A stretch of DNA of 64,000 nt from the sequence record PQ826431.1; one strand, given 5' to 3'. A program made the position numbers and the translations under genes. The notes under the pieces are model-generated. The model saw only the letters and a list, made by a program, of their open reading frames with translations, made no database searches and was not told the origin of the DNA. This document shows positions 17,520 through 39,470 of this stretch, one piece after another. Numbering within the stretch: position 1 is the stretch's first letter; the number at the start of each line of letters is the position of its first letter. This DNA is from a phage.

Positions 17520-17548
17520 GAGAATACAGTAATAGTTTAGGAGTGGTT

Positions 17549-18220
17549 ATGAAAAAGTTTGTTGTTTACAGTCGTCTTTCTAAACAGAAAAAAGGTGAGG
17601 CACAATATGGTATGGAGAGCCAAGAGAACGATATCCGTTACTTCTTAGACTCTGTGCCTGATGCTGAAGTTATTGGTCAATTTTCTGAATACTATTCGGG
17701 TAAGGGCGATTGGAAGCAACGTAAGGAACTGGTCAAAGCGGTTGAAATGTGTAAAGCTACCGGAGCAACTTTATTGGTAGCTAAAGTTGATCGCTTGGGT
17801 CGTAACAACGCCTCCGTAGCAACTCTTCTGGAGATGATCGATGTTAAGATAGCCATCATGCCAGACGCAGATAAAATGGTTATACAGCTTCTGTCTGTTC
17901 TGGCTGAACAAGAAGTTAGAGGTATTGCTGATCGTATTAAAAAGGGTCTTGCTGTAGCAAAAAGTAAAGGTGTTTTATTAGGCAGTGCTAATCCTAAAAC
18001 TGCCGCTGCACGTAGAAAAGGAAAAATGGAATACAATTCTGTTAAAGCAGACGCTTTTGCAGAGACATTCCGTGAACGCTTGGAGATCCTTAGAGATTTA
18101 AATACACCTTACAAAACTATTGCTGAAAAATTCAATAGTAAGAAAATAGCAACAGCACGTGGTGGTAAATGGGATGCTAAAACTGTTTCTCGTTTGTGTG
18201 CCAGACTGAACATTAAATAG
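17549..18220 (+). CDS. small serine recombinase (resolvase/invertase family), 223 aa
   Basis: N-terminal Y-S-R-L-S catalytic serine motif, LVAKVDRLGRN motif, GIADRIKKGLAVAKSKG, C-terminal HTH; RBS AGGAG. Confidence 0.7.
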   Translation: MKKFVVYSRLSKQKKGEAQYGMESQENDIRYFLDSVPDAEVIGQFSEYYSGKGDWKQRKELVKAVEMCKATGATLLVAKVDRLGRNNASVATLLEMIDVKIAIMPDADKMVIQLLSVLAEQEVRGIADRIKKGLAVAKSKGVLLGSANPKTAAARRKGKMEYNSVKADAFAETFRERLEILRDLNTPYKTIAEKFNSKKIATARGGKWDAKTVSRLCARLNIK

Positions 18221-25049: not shown

Positions 25050-25865
25050 TTATTTGTTTAAGTGGTCTTCGACCATTTTAATGAAACCTTCATTGCTGAA
25101 GGCTGTTGCAGCTTTTTCTCGGTAAACAAAAACTCCACGATCTTCATAGAGAAGTGTTTCTTCGTAATTAACTCCAGGGTTAACTACAACCATTTTTGTA
25201 CCCATACTAAGTGCAGGAAATAATTCCCAATTAAAATTGATAACTTGGTTTGAACATCCTACTACTACAACCAAATCTTGCATGGTCAAAGTATCGAACA
25301 AGTGAGCCATATCTGCATACAAAGGTGCAGCCTCACCAAAAAATACAACATTAGGCTTCACCCAGTTATAATCATCTATGTTTATACTATTGTAACCAAT
25401 ATCTACCAGTGTTTTGTAATCTCCAGGATGCATACGGTAAACTACTTCAGGAAGATATCCGTGTACGTGAATAACAGAATCTCTGTCTACACCTGCTCGC
25501 TCTAGTAGATCATCAACGTTTGTTGTCAAGTTTACTATTTGGTTAGGATATTCCTTAAACCACTTTGCTATTTGAATATGTGCAGCATTAGGTTGTACAT
25601 CTTTAAGCTCAACACGTCTTTTGTTATAAAATTCGTGTGTTTTGGCATACAAATCCATACCGTTCTCGTCTACACCACCGACCACTGGAAGATCTGGAGA
25701 TGTTCTAACACGATAACCTGCTTGGAAAGCTCCAATATCGCAGACCTCTTCTAAATCATATTCTTCCCATAAAGCACGACCACTATCTGTGTCTGTTCTA
25801 AATGTTCGAATCCCACTGTCTGCACTTAAACCTGCACCGCTTACAAAAATCACTCGTCTTGGCAT
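25050..25865 (-). CDS. Sir2-family (sirtuin-like) NAD-binding protein, 271 aa
   Basis: N-terminal FVSGAGLSADSGIRTFR (sirtuin GAG-S-x-x-SGI-P-x-FR-like motif), IHVHG motif; no Zn-ribbon cysteines seen. Confidence 0.65.
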   Translation of the reverse strand: MPRRVIFVSGAGLSADSGIRTFRTDTDSGRALWEEYDLEEVCDIGAFQAGYRVRTSPDLPVVGGVDENGMDLYAKTHEFYNKRRVELKDVQPNAAHIQIAKWFKEYPNQIVNLTTNVDDLLERAGVDRDSVIHVHGYLPEVVYRMHPGDYKTLVDIGYNSINIDDYNWVKPNVVFFGEAAPLYADMAHLFDTLTMQDLVVVVGCSNQVINFNWELFPALSMGTKMVVVNPGVNYEETLLYEDRGVFVYREKAATAFSNEGFIKMVEDHLNK

Positions 25866-26335
25866 TCTTCCTCCTCAAATGGATCATAAGAATTGTACTC
25901 GTAAGTATCATCTTCTGAAAATTCTACTTCGAAATAAATATCAAACTCTGCAAACAGACGTAGGATGTTAGACATGCTGTAATAATTATCGTAGGCAGAT
26001 TCAGCTTCATAGTAAACATAAAGCAAATGGTTAGCCTTATCATCTTCCAAATATTTCCCGTCTGCATACGCATAGTCTGCATATGCTTTACCTGCATCTT
26101 CCACAAGAGAACGATCAAGCAGAGTAGGAAATGGTTTCTCTTTTTCTTTTAGTTTGCTCACTAACCAATGTGCAATATCATTCCATTCTGCATCCATACC
26201 ACTAAAGCAACTTGCTTCTTCTCCAAAAGAAGCTTCTCCTAAATCGCCACTAATACGAACAACATTAGATGAATTATAGCCACACGTTTCACAATCAGAG
26301 TAACTATTATGCACATTGACATTTACTTGAAACAT
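25850..26335 (-). CDS. hypothetical acidic protein (161 aa)
   Basis: ORF track; D/E/Y-rich. Confidence 0.55.
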   Translation of the reverse strand: MFQVNVNVHNSYSDCETCGYNSSNVVRISGDLGEASFGEEASCFSGMDAEWNDIAHWLVSKLKEKEKPFPTLLDRSLVEDAGKAYADYAYADGKYLEDDKANHLLYVYYEAESAYDNYYSMSNILRLFAEFDIYFEVEFSEDDTYEYNSYDPFEEEECQDE

Positions 26336-26393
26336 ATTCCCTCCTATAAAAGAAAAGCCCCCTGAAACAGGAGGCTTTGTTCAGATATTGGCA

Positions 26394-27047
26394 CTATACC
26401 AGACTTTCAAGGTATTTGTCAAGGGCTTCTTGATCACCTTGACAAACATAGCAACGGAAGTCTTGAGCCGAAGGTTGTTTATTTTCATCCCAATCCCAAT
26501 AAACATTACCTTTATAACGCGAGCCAGGGAACTCAAAAGAGGCTGTATGTGTAATGTATCCTGGGCCACCAGTGAAATCACAGAATGAGAATTGAGGGTA
26601 TGCCGCCTTTACTGCCTCAATAAACCAAGCTTTACGATCTAAAGCTTCATTGATGCTATACGCATGTCTCTCCATTTCTTCCCACGTTTTCCAGACACTT
26701 CTCTCATCAGGAGAAAAGACAAGCCATTCTGGAAGGTATAGAGTGTCATAGTAATCATCATATTCGATCTCGGAGGCGCACGAAGCTGACTCCTCCAGTT
26801 TTGAGTAATCAAAAGCAGAATATACCCACCAACCATCTTCCAGTAACGCTTTGATAGGGACGAAGCCTTTATCAGCATATTGATCGAATTGTTTGACACG
26901 GTGGCTTGTGCAGTCTTCAAACTCACATTCTAAACGATATGCACCTTTTCGACGAGCCTCAAGACCGTGTGTACTGAAAATAACAACACTTCCTTCACCA
27001 TCATTACGATCTACTTGATAAGCAACCACTGGTTTTGAATTTGACAT
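26394..27047 (-). CDS. hypothetical protein (217 aa)
   Basis: ORF track. Confidence 0.55.
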   Translation of the reverse strand: MSNSKPVVAYQVDRNDGEGSVVIFSTHGLEARRKGAYRLECEFEDCTSHRVKQFDQYADKGFVPIKALLEDGWWVYSAFDYSKLEESASCASEIEYDDYYDTLYLPEWLVFSPDERSVWKTWEEMERHAYSINEALDRKAWFIEAVKAAYPQFSFCDFTGGPGYITHTASFEFPGSRYKGNVYWDWDENKQPSAQDFRCYVCQGDQEALDKYLESLV

Positions 27048-27730
27048 TATTTCTCCTTATCTAGAAGATTGTTAGACAAAAACACTGCACGAGCAAAACC
27101 ACGTGCGGTTAGTGATCTAAGTTGTTTTGTTTTTGCACTAGCTCCACCTAAGCTTTTCCAACCCCAGAAGCAGCCTATATGATCTACTGGTTTCTTCACT
27201 GGTTGAACAAAACCATTGCCGTGCCAAATACAAGTTTTCTTTGTATACCCATCACGGGTAGGCATTTTAGGATGAAAACTTCCTTCCTCTTCAAACAAAT
27301 ACCCACCATACTCATAAGGATCAAAGTAAAAATCAGGTTTACGCCATAAGGTTGAAAGTTTACCTACTGGGTTTTCAATCATCCAAGGAACATTATATTT
27401 GTTACCCAAAGCTTCCACTACACGAATATTAGCTAAAGCTTCATCTAATTCCTCTGTGCTACGTTCGTGTTTGCTACCACTACCTGCTAACATAGTGCAG
27501 GGTGGAAATCCAAAAATAATATCGGGTTTAGGTATCCCATGATCTTCAGGGTTGAATGTAGAATCTATCCAGGCATTCACATAAGTTATGTTTGGGTGCT
27601 CCATCCTAACCTCGTATTTACCGTGATCCCCTTCATCAGCGTTTACACAAAAACACTTGTGACCTGCTTCGGCATAACGTAACACCATGATCCCAGATCC
27701 GTCAAACATAGACAAAACTGTTTTACTCAT
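27047..27730 (-). CDS. C5-cytosine methyltransferase-fold protein, short (227 aa), Pro-Cys-Thr in place of Pro-Cys-Gln
   Basis: motif I-like FDGSG, motif IV-like DIIFGFPPCTMLAGSG, motif VI-like ENPVGKL; track ORF trimmed to ATG after RBS GGAGGGG. Confidence 0.5.
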   Translation of the reverse strand: MSKTVLSMFDGSGIMVLRYAEAGHKCFCVNADEGDHGKYEVRMEHPNITYVNAWIDSTFNPEDHGIPKPDIIFGFPPCTMLAGSGSKHERSTEELDEALANIRVVEALGNKYNVPWMIENPVGKLSTLWRKPDFYFDPYEYGGYLFEEEGSFHPKMPTRDGYTKKTCIWHGNGFVQPVKKPVDHIGCFWGWKSLGGASAKTKQLRSLTARGFARAVFLSNNLLDKEK

Positions 27731-28118
27731 TACCCCTCCATTCAAGACAAGCCATAACTTTACGCCAATCACTTTCTGTAAGAAAAATCTCGTTTGCTTT
27801 CTTCCACAAATCTAAATCGTGAAGGGTTGGAATACGATATGTTAGTTCACAGAATCTATGCTCTTCTTCTGTAATATAACCAAAATGCAGAGCCACATCG
27901 TGAAACCAACACCAACCATGCATCTCTCGAACAACATGGTCATGCTGAGACATTGTTTTATGCCGTAAACCTAACCAACAAGGAACAGATACTTTAGTAG
28001 TCTTTAATCTGTGATCAACAGTATTAGAGTATTCAATAATAGCTGTCAGTTTCAATCGTGCTTTTTCTAAATCCTCATGCGTCACTTTGAAATAACTTTC
28101 TGAAAGATATCCACACAT
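27723..28118 (-). CDS. hypothetical protein (131 aa)
   Basis: track ORF trimmed to ATG after RBS GAAGGAGG. Confidence 0.5.
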   Translation of the reverse strand: MCGYLSESYFKVTHEDLEKARLKLTAIIEYSNTVDHRLKTTKVSVPCWLGLRHKTMSQHDHVVREMHGWCWFHDVALHFGYITEEEHRFCELTYRIPTLHDLDLWKKANEIFLTESDWRKVMACLEWRGNE

Positions 28119-28119
28119 A

Positions 28120-29061
28120 TTAATAACCTCCTTCAAAAGGCTTTACTACATGTTGATTAGCTTTAAAACGTTCAACATAGTCGTTTTCGCCCATGTTTTC
28201 ATATAGCTTAGTAACAACATAAAAGTTTTCCCAAGCATATTCCCTAAACCAACCACTAGTGATGGATGTGCAGACTTTAGATAAAGCCATTATAAAACTT
28301 TGCTTAGGGGTTGGACCTCCGATCTCTCCACCGAAAGGAATTTGTGAACGTTCCAAAGCCAAAACACACGCTTCTTCATAAACACCTAACAGGCGCACAT
28401 GTTTTGGTTGAGCAAAAAACTTTTCTTTGCTGGTCATAACTTCACTTCCATCTTTCATATAAGATTTATATGCCGGAGCATCCATTACCGCGATTGCTTC
28501 ATGGATAGAATCATGATCATAAACATACGGAACCTCATCACCTTTAAAAAAGTCTTTACTTTTTACGTTTAAGTTCGGATGAGAGTAAGTGTATGTTTCT
28601 TTCTCACGCAACTCATAAATACTCTTAAGATTTTCTGGGATCTTTGCGCCCAGTGACCGCATGAAATGAATATCTTTCATAGTTTTAAAGAAGTGAGGAC
28701 TATCCTTTTTAAAACGATGACTCATTTTAAGAAGGTAGAGCACATCTAAAGGAGCAACAACATGTCCAGCGTAAGTTCGACGAACATCATCAGAATCTTC
28801 ACAATAACTAATCAAAGCTTCTGTGCTATCTCCTTGAGAAGCAATATCGTATTCCAAATGTGCACCAGCTATCATTTTGACATGGCCTTTGTTTCCTTTA
28901 CGTTCTACAAGTTCAACAAACTCCTCTTGAGAGAACATTTTTGATAATTCTTCCCACTCTTGTTCTGTACACAGGTAATCTAAATCTACACAAGGGCGAT
29001 ACAAGTCTTTTCCCATGTCCATAGCATGAATTTGCAATGCACGGCTACCAATTAACACCAT
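28120..29061 (-). CDS. hypothetical protein (313 aa); possible nucleotidyltransferase-like N-terminus
   Basis: ORF track; N-terminal LIGSRAL...DLD pattern only weakly resembles NTase GS...D-x-D motif. Confidence 0.5.
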   Translation of the reverse strand: MVLIGSRALQIHAMDMGKDLYRPCVDLDYLCTEQEWEELSKMFSQEEFVELVERKGNKGHVKMIAGAHLEYDIASQGDSTEALISYCEDSDDVRRTYAGHVVAPLDVLYLLKMSHRFKKDSPHFFKTMKDIHFMRSLGAKIPENLKSIYELREKETYTYSHPNLNVKSKDFFKGDEVPYVYDHDSIHEAIAVMDAPAYKSYMKDGSEVMTSKEKFFAQPKHVRLLGVYEEACVLALERSQIPFGGEIGGPTPKQSFIMALSKVCTSITSGWFREYAWENFYVVTKLYENMGENDYVERFKANQHVVKPFEGGY

Positions 29062-35120: not shown

Positions 35121-35813
35121 TTAAATAGCGGTTCCTTCGAAATCCGCCACATTTACGAGATTAATATTTTCAGATTTAGAAGTCAAGTTGTTTTCTGCAA
35201 CAGATTTTTCTTCAGTATCCGCCTCGTTACCTGCCACGTTACGAGGTTCTTCTTCACCGTAGGGATTACCGAATTTCAAAAGATTGATCAATTCTTCTTT
35301 GGAGAAGTTTTCTAAATCATCATCTGTTAATTCAATAATCTCGTCTTGTTCTTCAATAAATGTTTCACCACCAGAAAAAGCATCTCGCTTTTTAGCTACT
35401 TCCATAGCCTGTTCTGGTGTTGCTCCTGCATCAAGAGCAGCTAAAGCAAAGTCTGACCCGCTTCCTACCGCATAATATTCTTCATCAATCGGATATGCAC
35501 GTGTTGGGTTGTTACCTTCGTGCAGGAAAATACGTCCATCTGGATGAACAACAAGTGCAATAAACTCTTCATCTTCTTTATCTGGATCAGAGTGAATCAT
35601 CAAACCAGGGACAGCATCACGTGCTGCTTCGCACTGTAGATTTTGTTCAAACCATTGAAAGAAAGAAAGCACGGAGGTCAGACGACCAGCACCGCCTACA
35701 AGGTAATCTCCAATTTTTCGGACCTTTTTGAAATTAATAGAATCTACACGTCCACCAAAAGTTACCTTACCGTCACTCAAAATCTTATTTTTGGTCGCAA
35801 TAATTGTCGTCAC
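35121..35813 (-). CDS. HslV-like (proteasome beta-type, N-terminal Thr) peptidase with acidic C-terminal extension, 230 aa
   Basis: MTTIIATKN N-terminus, GGRV, LVGGAGR, AVGSGSDFALAAL resemble HslV/ClpQ. Confidence 0.55.
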   Translation of the reverse strand: MTTIIATKNKILSDGKVTFGGRVDSINFKKVRKIGDYLVGGAGRLTSVLSFFQWFEQNLQCEAARDAVPGLMIHSDPDKEDEEFIALVVHPDGRIFLHEGNNPTRAYPIDEEYYAVGSGSDFALAALDAGATPEQAMEVAKKRDAFSGGETFIEEQDEIIELTDDDLENFSKEELINLLKFGNPYGEEEPRNVAGNEADTEEKSVAENNLTSKSENINLVNVADFEGTAI

Positions 35814-37807: not shown

Positions 37808-38068
37808 TTACTCCGCAATTTGAGCCATGAGATCACGCAGTTCGGTAAAACCGCCTACGTATGTTACCTCCCCGTTCACTTCAGACAGAATTTGTGGAAA
37901 TGTGCGTGGAGGAACTCCGGTAAGATCAACAACTGTTTTAGTCATTGATTCTAAATCATAGTCTTGATCAAGACTTAAATATTCAAACTGTTTATTGCGC
38001 ATGGTTAATAGTTGTTTTGACATTTCGCAAAATTGACAGTTAGGTTTACCAAAAATTACAAATTCCAT
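37808..38068 (-). CDS. glutaredoxin-like protein (NrdC/NrdH-type), 86 aa
   Basis: thioredoxin-fold CxxC (KPNCQFC) and TFPQI...GG motif. Confidence 0.75.
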   Translation of the reverse strand: MEFVIFGKPNCQFCEMSKQLLTMRNKQFEYLSLDQDYDLESMTKTVVDLTGVPPRTFPQILSEVNGEVTYVGGFTELRDLMAQIAE

Positions 38069-38910
38069 TACCTCTCCTTATTAAGTAATACTGCTAAAGA
38101 CTGTTCAATACCTTTATTTAAATCTGATTTTGTAAGATAGTGACTGGTTACTAGTTGTGACTTCACCGGACGTGCTGCTGGAGCATTATAGGTTGAAGCT
38201 GATACCGCCGATATCTTAACAGGTTCTGGCATCTGTGTCAAGATCTTTTCCGCAAACTCCGCCCAAGAAATAAAATGGCTTCCTGCAAAATGGTAAGTCT
38301 TAACAGACCTTGACCAACCTGTTTTTAATACTTCAAAAATAGCTTCTGCTAAATCTGGAGCATATGTTGGACAAGAGAACTGATCAGCAACAACAATAAA
38401 ATCACGTTGTCCATCATTATAGCGAGACAACATGGTTTTTAGAAAGTTATTTCCAAATTCGCTATATACCGAGGCTGTTCGAATAATATATGCATTTGGG
38501 TTAACTCCTCGCACCATTTTTTCACCAAGTTCTTTCGTATACCCATAATTGTTTATTGGGTTAGGTGTAGTATCTTCAAAAATAGGATGAGAATAATTAA
38601 AAATATAATCTGTAGAAATATGCACAAAATCAATTTTAAGTTTGCTGCACACTGCCGCAATATTTGCAGGTCCATACGCATTAACAGCCAAAGCAGTAGC
38701 AAAATCATGTTCTGCTTTATCTACAGCCGTATAAGCGGCGCAATTAATAACACCATCTACATAATCTTCAACAATAGCGTTTCGCACAGCTTCAAAATTT
38801 GTAATATCTACACGTTCTTTAGGATAAATTAAAGATACATTTGAAGGAACCACTTTACGTAAAGCTTGTCCCAGTTGTCCATTACCGCCCAATACCAGAT
38901 ATGTTAGCAT
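38068..38910 (-). CDS. rmlD: dTDP-4-dehydrorhamnose reductase
   Basis: GGNGQLG, INCAAYTAVDKAE, HISTDYIF, YGYTKELGEK (YxxxK), RTASVY..GNNFLKTML closely match RmlD. Confidence 0.85.
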   Translation of the reverse strand: MLTYLVLGGNGQLGQALRKVVPSNVSLIYPKERVDITNFEAVRNAIVEDYVDGVINCAAYTAVDKAEHDFATALAVNAYGPANIAAVCSKLKIDFVHISTDYIFNYSHPIFEDTTPNPINNYGYTKELGEKMVRGVNPNAYIIRTASVYSEFGNNFLKTMLSRYNDGQRDFIVVADQFSCPTYAPDLAEAIFEVLKTGWSRSVKTYHFAGSHFISWAEFAEKILTQMPEPVKISAVSASTYNAPAARPVKSQLVTSHYLTKSDLNKGIEQSLAVLLNKER

Positions 38911-39470
38911 ACACCCTCGCTACGTAACTGTTGAAAAGATTTAGCCATTGCATCTTTTGTTGATAGGATAGGTTTAAAACCTTCGTCAAAAATCATATCG
39001 AAGCCCCAATCGATCCCTATGTCAGGATCATCCCAACGTAAACTTTGTTCACTAGAAGGGTCGTATGGAGTTGTGCATTTGTATTCAAAGATCGCATCCA
39101 TACTCAAAACTATAAAACCATGTGCCAAACCAGGAGGAAGCCAAAACTGCGTATGGTGTCGTGCACGAAGAACAACACCGTCCCAAGCACCGTAAGTTGG
39201 ACTGTCTTTACGTAAGTCTACAGCGAAATCCAATACTTCCCCACTTACACAACGAACAAGCTTACCTTGCGGATTATTTGTTTGAAAGTGCATTCCTCGC
39301 AAAACACCGAAGTTTGATTTAGACATATTATCTTGAACGAAAGTTTGTTTACCAATAATATCTTCGTATTTTTGTTCATTGTATGTTTCTAAAAAGAAAC
39401 CACGATCATCTTTATAAACGTCTGGTTTGATAATTACCGCACCTTCAATTTTTGTTTTTTCTACTTTCAT
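38904..39470 (-). CDS. rmlC: dTDP-4-dehydrorhamnose 3,5-epimerase
   Basis: DDRGFFLETY, FVQDN-SKS-FGVLRGMHFQ match RmlC cupin signature. Confidence 0.85.
   Translation of the reverse strand: MKVEKTKIEGAVIIKPDVYKDDRGFFLETYNEQKYEDIIGKQTFVQDNMSKSNFGVLRGMHFQTNNPQGKLVRCVSGEVLDFAVDLRKDSPTYGAWDGVVLRARHHTQFWLPPGLAHGFIVLSMDAIFEYKCTTPYDPSSEQSLRWDDPDIGIDWGFDMIFDEGFKPILSTKDAMAKSFQQLRSEGVC

Follow-up and report, generated by a model that had tools for sequence, protein, structure and literature searches.

What kind of enzyme is encoded by a short phage gene whose product carries the landmarks of a cytosine-C5 methyltransferase and almost no domain for recognising DNA? The gene lies on the minus strand of a 64,000-nucleotide stretch of phage DNA (record PQ826431.1; hereafter the window), and its 227-amino-acid product was described in the initial annotation, made from the sequence alone, as a miniature C5-methyltransferase-fold protein whose Pro-Cys-Thr motif might signal altered chemistry. 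That interpretation is partly supported. On the combined analysis, the gene very probably encodes an active, solitary (“orphan”) DNA cytosine-C5 methyltransferase that depends on S-adenosylmethionine (SAM) and belongs to a compact, Dcm-like phage family. The family is not new: its members carry this annotation in many phages, and it is characterised in part. The finding, though genuine, is an ordinary one.

Are the motifs genuine? Motifs I, IV, and VI occur where they were first described, at F9-DGSG13, F73 to G85, and E119-NPVGKL125 (Table 1 gives coordinates). The FDGSG of motif I aligns to FSGAGG of M.HaeIII, to LFDGIATG of DNMT3A, and to the LFAGLGG of the M.HhaI family. In motif IV, Pro77-Cys78 aligns to the PCQ of M.HaeIII and M.HhaI and to the PCN of DNMT3A; the codon of the nucleophile, Cys78, is at 27497-27499, and Thr79 stands in place of the usual Gln. 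The family profile compared with M.HhaI alone by hhalign aligns over motifs IV to VI and puts E119-N-P on the ENV of M.HhaI, with a weak E of 0.07. The resemblance goes far beyond chance. Residues 1-225 of the protein match positions 13-223 of the 247-position PHROG 757 “DNA methyltransferase” profile with an E of 1.8e-84. Of 50,697 phage records searched with tblastn, 1,488 contain a homologue, and in 1,467 of these the match extends over 80% or more of the query; HMMER against 1.84 billion cluster representatives (50% identity) returns 965 at E ≤ 1e-3 and 380 at E ≤ 1e-10. Nearly all of the homologues have 200-260 amino acids. Family members occur in Webervirus and other Drexlerviridae, in Kagunavirus, Dhillonvirus, rV5-like and RB49 phages, and in SE131-type Salmonella phages (~90 kb), as well as in a P1-like phage and in Vibrio, Xanthomonas, and Azospirillum phages.

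Aligning 77 diverse full-length members, whose identity to the query is 33-59%, shows how typical the window protein is. Members range from 202 to 260 amino acids (median 229), so small size is a family trait. The query has all eight invariant residues (C78, G85, E119, P121, P138, Y162, W169, and P177); K164 is found in 76 of the 77 members and N120 in 75. Directly following the catalytic Cys, 69 members have Thr, 5 have Asp, 2 have Glu, and 1 has Gln. Thus, Pro-Cys-Thr is the family norm, not a peculiarity of this gene. The family signature, LFDx(T/S)G, FPPCT, ENP, Y.K.T..W, and R-S-x-T-P-x-G-F-A-x-A, is found in the query, which carries minority variants at N30 (Asp in most members), A209 (for Pro), and M80 (for Asp). 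Asn30 and the FDGSG form of motif I mark a subfamily that includes the enzyme of phage KarlJaspers.

What does such an enzyme make? KarlJaspers (BASEL Bas06, MZ501090) has a 711-bp gene annotated as “Dcm-like C5 cytosine methyltransferase,” and its product, bas06_0055, matches the window protein by BLASTP with 50% identity (E 1e-71; residues 5-220 against 6-234). The genome of phage K42 is 95.4% identical to that of KarlJaspers (bioRxiv 10.1101/2023.08.16.553469; Cell Rep 2024;43:114857). Expression of K42 Dcm leads to high 5-methylcytosine (5mC) on the multicopy single-stranded DNA (msDNA) of retron Ec86, as measured by liquid chromatography-mass spectrometry, and msDNA 5mC is low with either the empty vector or the C82A/E128A/K175A/K176A mutant (bioRxiv 10.1101/2023.08.16.553469). 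In the BLASTP alignment these four residues, C82, E128, K175, and K176, are C78, E119, K164, and K165 of the window protein. Genetic evidence from the same study is consistent: all four of four retron-escape mutants have lesions in or just upstream of dcm, K42 Dcm is toxic only when the retron is present, mutation of the msDNA CCTGG site abolishes defence, and such a Dcm is encoded by 34 of 35 retron-sensitive phages (bioRxiv 10.1101/2023.08.16.553469). Together with the matching residues, the K42 data indicate that a family enzyme with Pro-Cys-Thr and Asn30 makes ordinary 5mC in DNA.

The KarlJaspers and window enzymes, 236 and 227 amino acids long, are both products of solitary phage genes and have in common the subfamily, FDGSG, Asn30, FPPCT, ENPVGKLSTLWRKPD, KKTC.W.GNGF, and RSLT.RGFARAVF. 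They differ in their phages, a Drexlerviridae siphovirus for KarlJaspers and a Stephanstirmvirinae myovirus for the window, and in a loop of ~30 residues between the motif-VIII-like strand and the C-terminal element that is largely unrelated in the two proteins. Hence, the target site need not be identical.

These data bear directly on the suggestion of altered chemistry, according to which the enzyme would transfer another group (e.g., carboxymethyl from carboxy-SAM) or act on free nucleotides. The suggestion arose from Thr in place of Gln and from the missing recognition domain, and it is very unlikely to be correct. The 50%-identical K42/KarlJaspers enzyme also has FPPCT and makes 5mC on DNA. 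Nor is the Gln of Pro-Cys-Gln invariant, as the initial annotation held: the catalytic domain of DNMT3A, an ordinary methyltransferase, reads GGSPCNDLS, with LFDGIATG as motif I (sequence checked as identical to PDB 5yx2_A), such that bona fide C5-methyltransferases can lack this Gln. A solved C5-carboxymethyltransferase (8yf3) is no closer in structure than ordinary methyltransferases, and a Pfam scan of the 30 larger open reading frames (ORFs) of the window revealed no cmoA-like, TET/JBP, or DNA-glycosyltransferase domain. The view that the protein is not Dcm-like likewise finds no support, given the Pro-Cys-Thr consensus, the 5mC made by K42 Dcm, and identical proteins already annotated as “Dcm.”

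How does the protein relate to the canonical C5-METHYLTRANSFERASES? By sequence, the link is weak and lies mostly in the N-terminal 90 residues. Searches of PDB sequences gave marginal matches to M.HaeIII (E 0.08 with phmmer) and DNMT2 (E 0.14). With DNMT3A as the only partner, hhalign aligned the family profile over motifs I-IV at an E of 3e-4. None of the hhalign alignments, whether to DNMT3A, M.HhaI, or the canonical set, reaches the C-terminal half. Profile alignment to established C5-methyltransferases, the check proposed at the outset, therefore lends weak support to motifs I-IV; for the C-terminal half, kinship is suggested by the structural model alone. In that model the link is clear, and the catalytic large domain is predicted to have the C5-methyltransferase fold, as first proposed. 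AlphaFold2, run with 83 sequences, returned a mean predicted local distance difference test score (pLDDT) of 92.9 and a predicted template modelling score (pTM) of 0.90; the seven strands of the model follow one another as in a class-I methyltransferase sheet, and Foldseek matched the model to DNMT3A/B at E ~1e-7. Structure comparison gave the highest score, 14.1, for DNMT3B (6u8p; 188 residues aligned), followed by a prophage methyltransferase (3g7u; 12.7), the carboxymethyltransferase 8yf3 (12.5), DNMT3A (12.2), M.HhaI (11.8), M.HaeIII (11.5), M.MpeI (11.2), and DNMT1 (11.2).

The DNMT3A and DNMT3B catalytic domains, the closest solved structures, are 15-19% identical to the phage protein. 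The PCN and LFDGIATG of DNMT3A resemble the phage consensus FPPCTDLA and LFDxTG. The DNMT3 enzymes differ in being eukaryotic, CpG-specific, and ~285 amino acids long, in keeping motif IX and a longer recognition loop, and in acting with DNMT3L or as homo-oligomers. M.HhaI, M.HaeIII, and E. coli Dcm have PCQ where the phage enzyme has PCT, and ENV where it has ENP; the RxR of canonical motif VIII contrasts with Lys residues in the phage enzyme, and some 37 residues take the place of the ~105 residues plus motif IX of M.HhaI. Given these differences and the sub-threshold Pfam match, the phage enzyme is probably best seen as a functional analogue of Dcm, not an orthologue. A further alternative is that the protein is an RNA (e.g., tRNA) cytosine-C5 methyltransferase like DNMT2, or else a catalytically dead protein that interferes with host defence by binding DNA or as a decoy. 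The DNMT2 matches are weaker than those to DNA methyltransferases, the K42 homologue methylates DNA, and a dead enzyme would not be expected to keep Cys and Glu invariant and Lys nearly so in 77 diverse members, all of which makes either version extremely improbable.

How might so compact a methyltransferase read DNA? The segment from W169 to R205 has 37 residues in the query and 30-50 across the family. In M.HhaI, ~105 residues separate motif VIII (R163/R165) from motif IX (R272...E278...R281). There is indeed no room for a normal target-recognition domain, and comparison with M.HhaI revealed no recognisable equivalent of motif IX in the query. Sequence alignments to canonical enzymes stop short of the strand from Y162 to W169, which would correspond to motif VIII (QxRxR), with Lys164 and Lys165 as the presumed equivalents of its RxR. 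The two corresponding Lys residues of K42 Dcm are among those mutated in the inactive control, and the region of the Lys strand was handled as the substrate-binding site in that study (bioRxiv 10.1101/2023.08.16.553469). At the C-terminus, the R205, S206, T208, P209, G211, and A215 columns are at least 90% conserved, and the element and helix to which they belong are, by position and fold in the model, probably motif-X-like and pack back on the SAM-binding domain. With ~200-260 residues, of which 30-50 make up the recognition remnant, and with motif IX not recognisable, the family may be the most reduced natural form of C5-methyltransferase and read DNA in a non-canonical way, a possibility that we consider tentative and rather doubtful. 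Were it so, the options would include a DNMT3-like dimer and a relaxed or structure-dependent specificity. The msDNA that the K42 enzyme methylates is a hairpin, which in the dcm+ host stays for the most part unmethylated. No solved structure or mapped methylome of any family member was found in sequence, profile, and fold searches of the PDB or in the literature searched.

Which site is methylated? We infer that the target is CCWGG, and this is the weakest link in the argument. The window has 69 CCWGG sites; base composition predicts 54 and a maximal-order Markov model 74, so the site is not avoided. No CCSGG site occurs, with 34 (composition) or 7 (Markov) expected. KarlJaspers is similar, with 125 CCWGG and 2 CCSGG sites. 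This contrast fits CCWGG as the protected site and is no proof of it. Avoidance of restriction sites is marked in the window: besides the missing CCSGG, CCGG, GGCC, and GTAC occur at ~0.35 of expectation, and CTGCAG, GGATCC, and CGATCG are absent from positions 1-64000; GATC, like CCWGG, is at expectation. With a recognition loop unlike the one in KarlJaspers, the Phapecoctavirus enzyme could act on some site other than CCWGG.

A second relative, gp74 of Klebsiella phage KP36 (NC_029099, 17553-18245), touches on the same question. It is 59% identical to the query (E 1e-97) and reads FPSCT in place of FPPCT; along with the PHROG 757 proteins of other Webervirus and Drexlerviridae phages and of rV5-like and RB49 phages, it forms a set 45-65% identical to the query and equal to it in length and motifs. 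KP36 DNA has 155 CCWGG sites and is uncut by EcoRII; the study that reported this stated that KP36 lacks a cytosine methyltransferase and credited the resistance to host Dcm (PMC3620542). Judged by its sequence, gp74 is a member of the PHROG 757 family that was overlooked in that 2013 study. CCWGG occurs once in the T7-like phage KP32, and no methyltransferase of that phage is described (PMC3620542). One candidate for family membership was rejected, namely KP27_137, which is the “Dcm” of phage KP27, itself resistant to EcoRII: it is a canonical 303-residue enzyme that matches at E 3e-4 over motifs I-IV only. Kinship or fusion with P1 Dmt was likewise rejected. The family member of phage D6 is a separate 226-residue gene, which adjoins a homologue of the C-terminal half of Dmt.

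What weighs against an active Dcm-like DNA methyltransferase with this target? First, recognition by sequence profiles is poor. The Pfam match to PF00145 (residues 4-92) falls below threshold, with 11.6 bits for a cut-off of 22 and an E of 0.18. An NCBIfam search of the protein gives no match, even at E ≤ 10. The 77-sequence family profile finds PDB sequences marginally (M.HaeIII, E 0.087), and hhalign against an alignment of 12 canonical sequences gives an E of 1e-4 and a probability of 56% over motifs I-IV. That canonical profile is shallow, as the search for M.HhaI homologues returned only relatives more than 70% identical. A homologue, P0064, carries a precomputed PF00145 match; a Tudor-domain Pfam match of the query was dismissed as spurious. 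Second, the acidic residue of motif II, a position that binds the SAM ribose in canonical C5-methyltransferases, is replaced at the end of strand 2 by Asn30. The active KarlJaspers subfamily also has Asn here, and for this reason Asn30 was rejected as a sign of lost SAM binding. Third, all experimental data come from homologues in other phages, outside Phapecoctavirus; two papers on Phapecoctavirus remark on methyltransferases in general terms only. Fourth, the evidence for the target is indirect. The EcoRII resistance of KP36 is confounded by the host’s own Dcm. MG1655, the host in the retron experiments, is dcm+. The CCTGG site of the msDNA is poorly methylated in MG1655 without the phage enzyme, and the CCWGG specificity of K42 Dcm was taken by analogy with host Dcm, not mapped (bioRxiv 10.1101/2023.08.16.553469). 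Poor methylation in a dcm+ host implies a difference between the phage enzyme and host Dcm, be it in the site, the strand, or access to the substrate. In addition, the query, KarlJaspers, and KP36 have strongly different loops in the recognition remnant, and their targets may therefore not be the same. Finally, methyltransferase genes and resistance to restriction showed no simple relationship in the BASEL study.

If the gene does encode an orphan DNA methyltransferase, how would it work? In this phAPEC8-like coliphage, the enzyme would be expressed as the product of one in a string of genes that overlap each other. By the canonical C5-methyltransferase scheme, the target cytosine would be flipped into the active site, the Cys78 thiolate would attack C6, and Glu119 would protonate N3. 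The methyl group of SAM would then pass to C5, and beta-elimination would free the enzyme, leaving ordinary 5-methylcytosine as the product. The 37-residue remnant could possibly read DNA as part of a DNMT3-like dimer. Methylation of replicating phage DNA would likely confer resistance to host restriction enzymes, most plausibly those of the EcoRII type that cut CCWGG; as a side effect, the activity could be sensed by retron Ec86 (Retron-Eco1).

Might 5mC be only a first step? In a hypermodification pathway, 5mC would be converted to 5-hydroxymethylcytosine and then to glycosylated or other adducts, as in phage systems that pair a methyltransferase with a TET enzyme (5mYOX). Such pathways exist in phages (PMC8256090; bioRxiv 10.1101/2023.12.21.572611), dTDP-sugar enzymes of the RmlC and RmlD kinds are encoded at 38068-39470 of the window, and several neighbouring genes have no known function. 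Set against this, the operon and the 30 ORFs scanned with Pfam, in a window that covers 64 kb of a ~150-kb genome, contain no TET/JBP dioxygenase or DNA glycosyltransferase, and the scan likewise found no deoxycytidine monophosphate hydroxymethylase. Moreover, over 1,400 phages from many genera that are not related to each other carry a family member, with varied neighbours, which fits a stand-alone function. Hypermodification is thus a very remote prospect, and an enzyme that works alone is the favoured reading.

What would follow from the presence of such an enzyme? As a discovery it carries little weight, since the identical protein is already annotated and a close homologue is characterised. 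Its practical relevance is modest. First, it predicts 5mC in phAPEC8-like therapeutic phages, which would affect restriction sensitivity, sequencing, and cloning. Second, it predicts that phAPEC8-like phages may be sensed by retron Ec86. Third, the family would offer a good minimal scaffold on which to study sequence recognition by a C5-methyltransferase that has almost no recognition domain.

Table 1. Positions of the methyltransferase gene, its motifs, and other genes in the window (nt, nucleotides; aa, amino acids)
Feature	Position	Strand	Remarks
Predicted compact Dcm-like C5-cytosine DNA methyltransferase, coding sequence	27047..27730	-	227 aa, PHROG 757 family
Shine-Dalgarno GGAGGGG	27733..27739	-	direct sequence read; ends 3 nt before ATG 27730
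Motif I (SAM-binding loop), F9-D-G-S-G13	27692..27706	-	family consensus (S)LFDx(T/S)G
Motif IV (catalytic loop), F73-GFPPCTMLAGSG-85	27476..27514	-	F73-G-F-P-P-C78-T79-M-L-A-G-S-G85
Motif VI (ENV-type), E119-N-P-V-G-K-L125	27356..27376	-	E119, P121 invariant; N120 in 75/77
Motif-VIII-like strand (beta-7), Y162-T-K-K-T-C-I-W169	27224..27247	-	model strand E166-171
Target-recognition/small-domain remnant, residues 170-204	27119..27223	-	most variable, least conserved part of the family
Conserved C-terminal R205-S-x-T-(P/A)-R-G-F-A-x-A-V-F-x-x-N220 element and helix	27071..27118	-	model helix H210-224
DUF7277+DUF7275 protein	28120-29061	-	conserved phage protein, function unknown; same gene string
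PHROG 16551 protein	27723-28118	-	131 aa, function unknown; directly upstream of the methyltransferase
PHROG 8514 protein	26394-27047	-	217 aa, function unknown; directly downstream of the methyltransferase
PHROG 9509 protein	25850-26335	-	161 aa, function unknown
Sir2-family protein	25050-25865	-	PF02146 E 1.9e-22; PHROG 2162 E 2.8e-104
RmlD-like dTDP-4-dehydrorhamnose reductase	38068-38910	-	PF04321 E 1.5e-73
RmlC-like dTDP-sugar 3,5-epimerase	38904-39470	-	PF00908 E 7.8e-67
Serine-recombinase/resolvase-like ORF	17543-18220	+	PF00239 E 5.4e-18
ORF with weak proteasome-subunit match	35121-35813	-	PF00227 E 1.1e-5

The 227-residue ORF proposed at the outset is borne out, with its start at the ATG of 27730. 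An alternative GTG start at 27772 would give a 241-residue product; the GGAGGGG and the overlaps at both ends of the gene indicate that the shorter reading is the right one. On the ATG side, the gene overlaps the stop codon (27723-27725) of its upstream neighbour by 8 nt, an arrangement that suggests translational coupling with that gene, and at the other end its TAA shares base 27047 with the ATG of the downstream gene. The annotation of phage tuntematon has identical gene boundaries. This region is 99% identical to those of the Phapecoctavirus (phAPEC8-like E. coli myoviruses) Ro121lw, ESCO13, Mt1B1_P17, Schickermooser, and tuntematon. Proteins 100% identical to the query are labelled “Dcm” (phage tuntematon) and “DNA methyltransferase” (phage EF1-1) in GenBank, and the RefSeq records of ESCO13 and Mt1B1_P17 have a “DNA methyltransferase” annotated in the matching region.

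Over the 3 kb that match window positions 26000-29000, identity to E. coli Phapecoctavirus phages reaches 99% in records labelled Campylobacter phage B15, Acinetobacter phage vB_AbaM_ABPW7, and Klebsiella phage ZCKP1, and Campylobacter phage C4 (a 50-kb record) has a 62.5%-identical family member; the host labels look doubtful. Counting downstream from the methyltransferase, the third gene of this tightly packed string encodes the Sir2-family protein. More distant genes of the window encode a ribonucleotide reductase, a ThyX-like protein, DNA and RNA ligases, PhoH, and the RmlC- and RmlD-like proteins, and the genes for the last two overlap one another in this lytic coliphage. Genes of the window are on the plus strand before 24 kb and on the minus strand from 25 to 60 kb; the sign of the GC skew flips at ~24-25 kb and once more at ~60 kb, together with the switches in coding strand.

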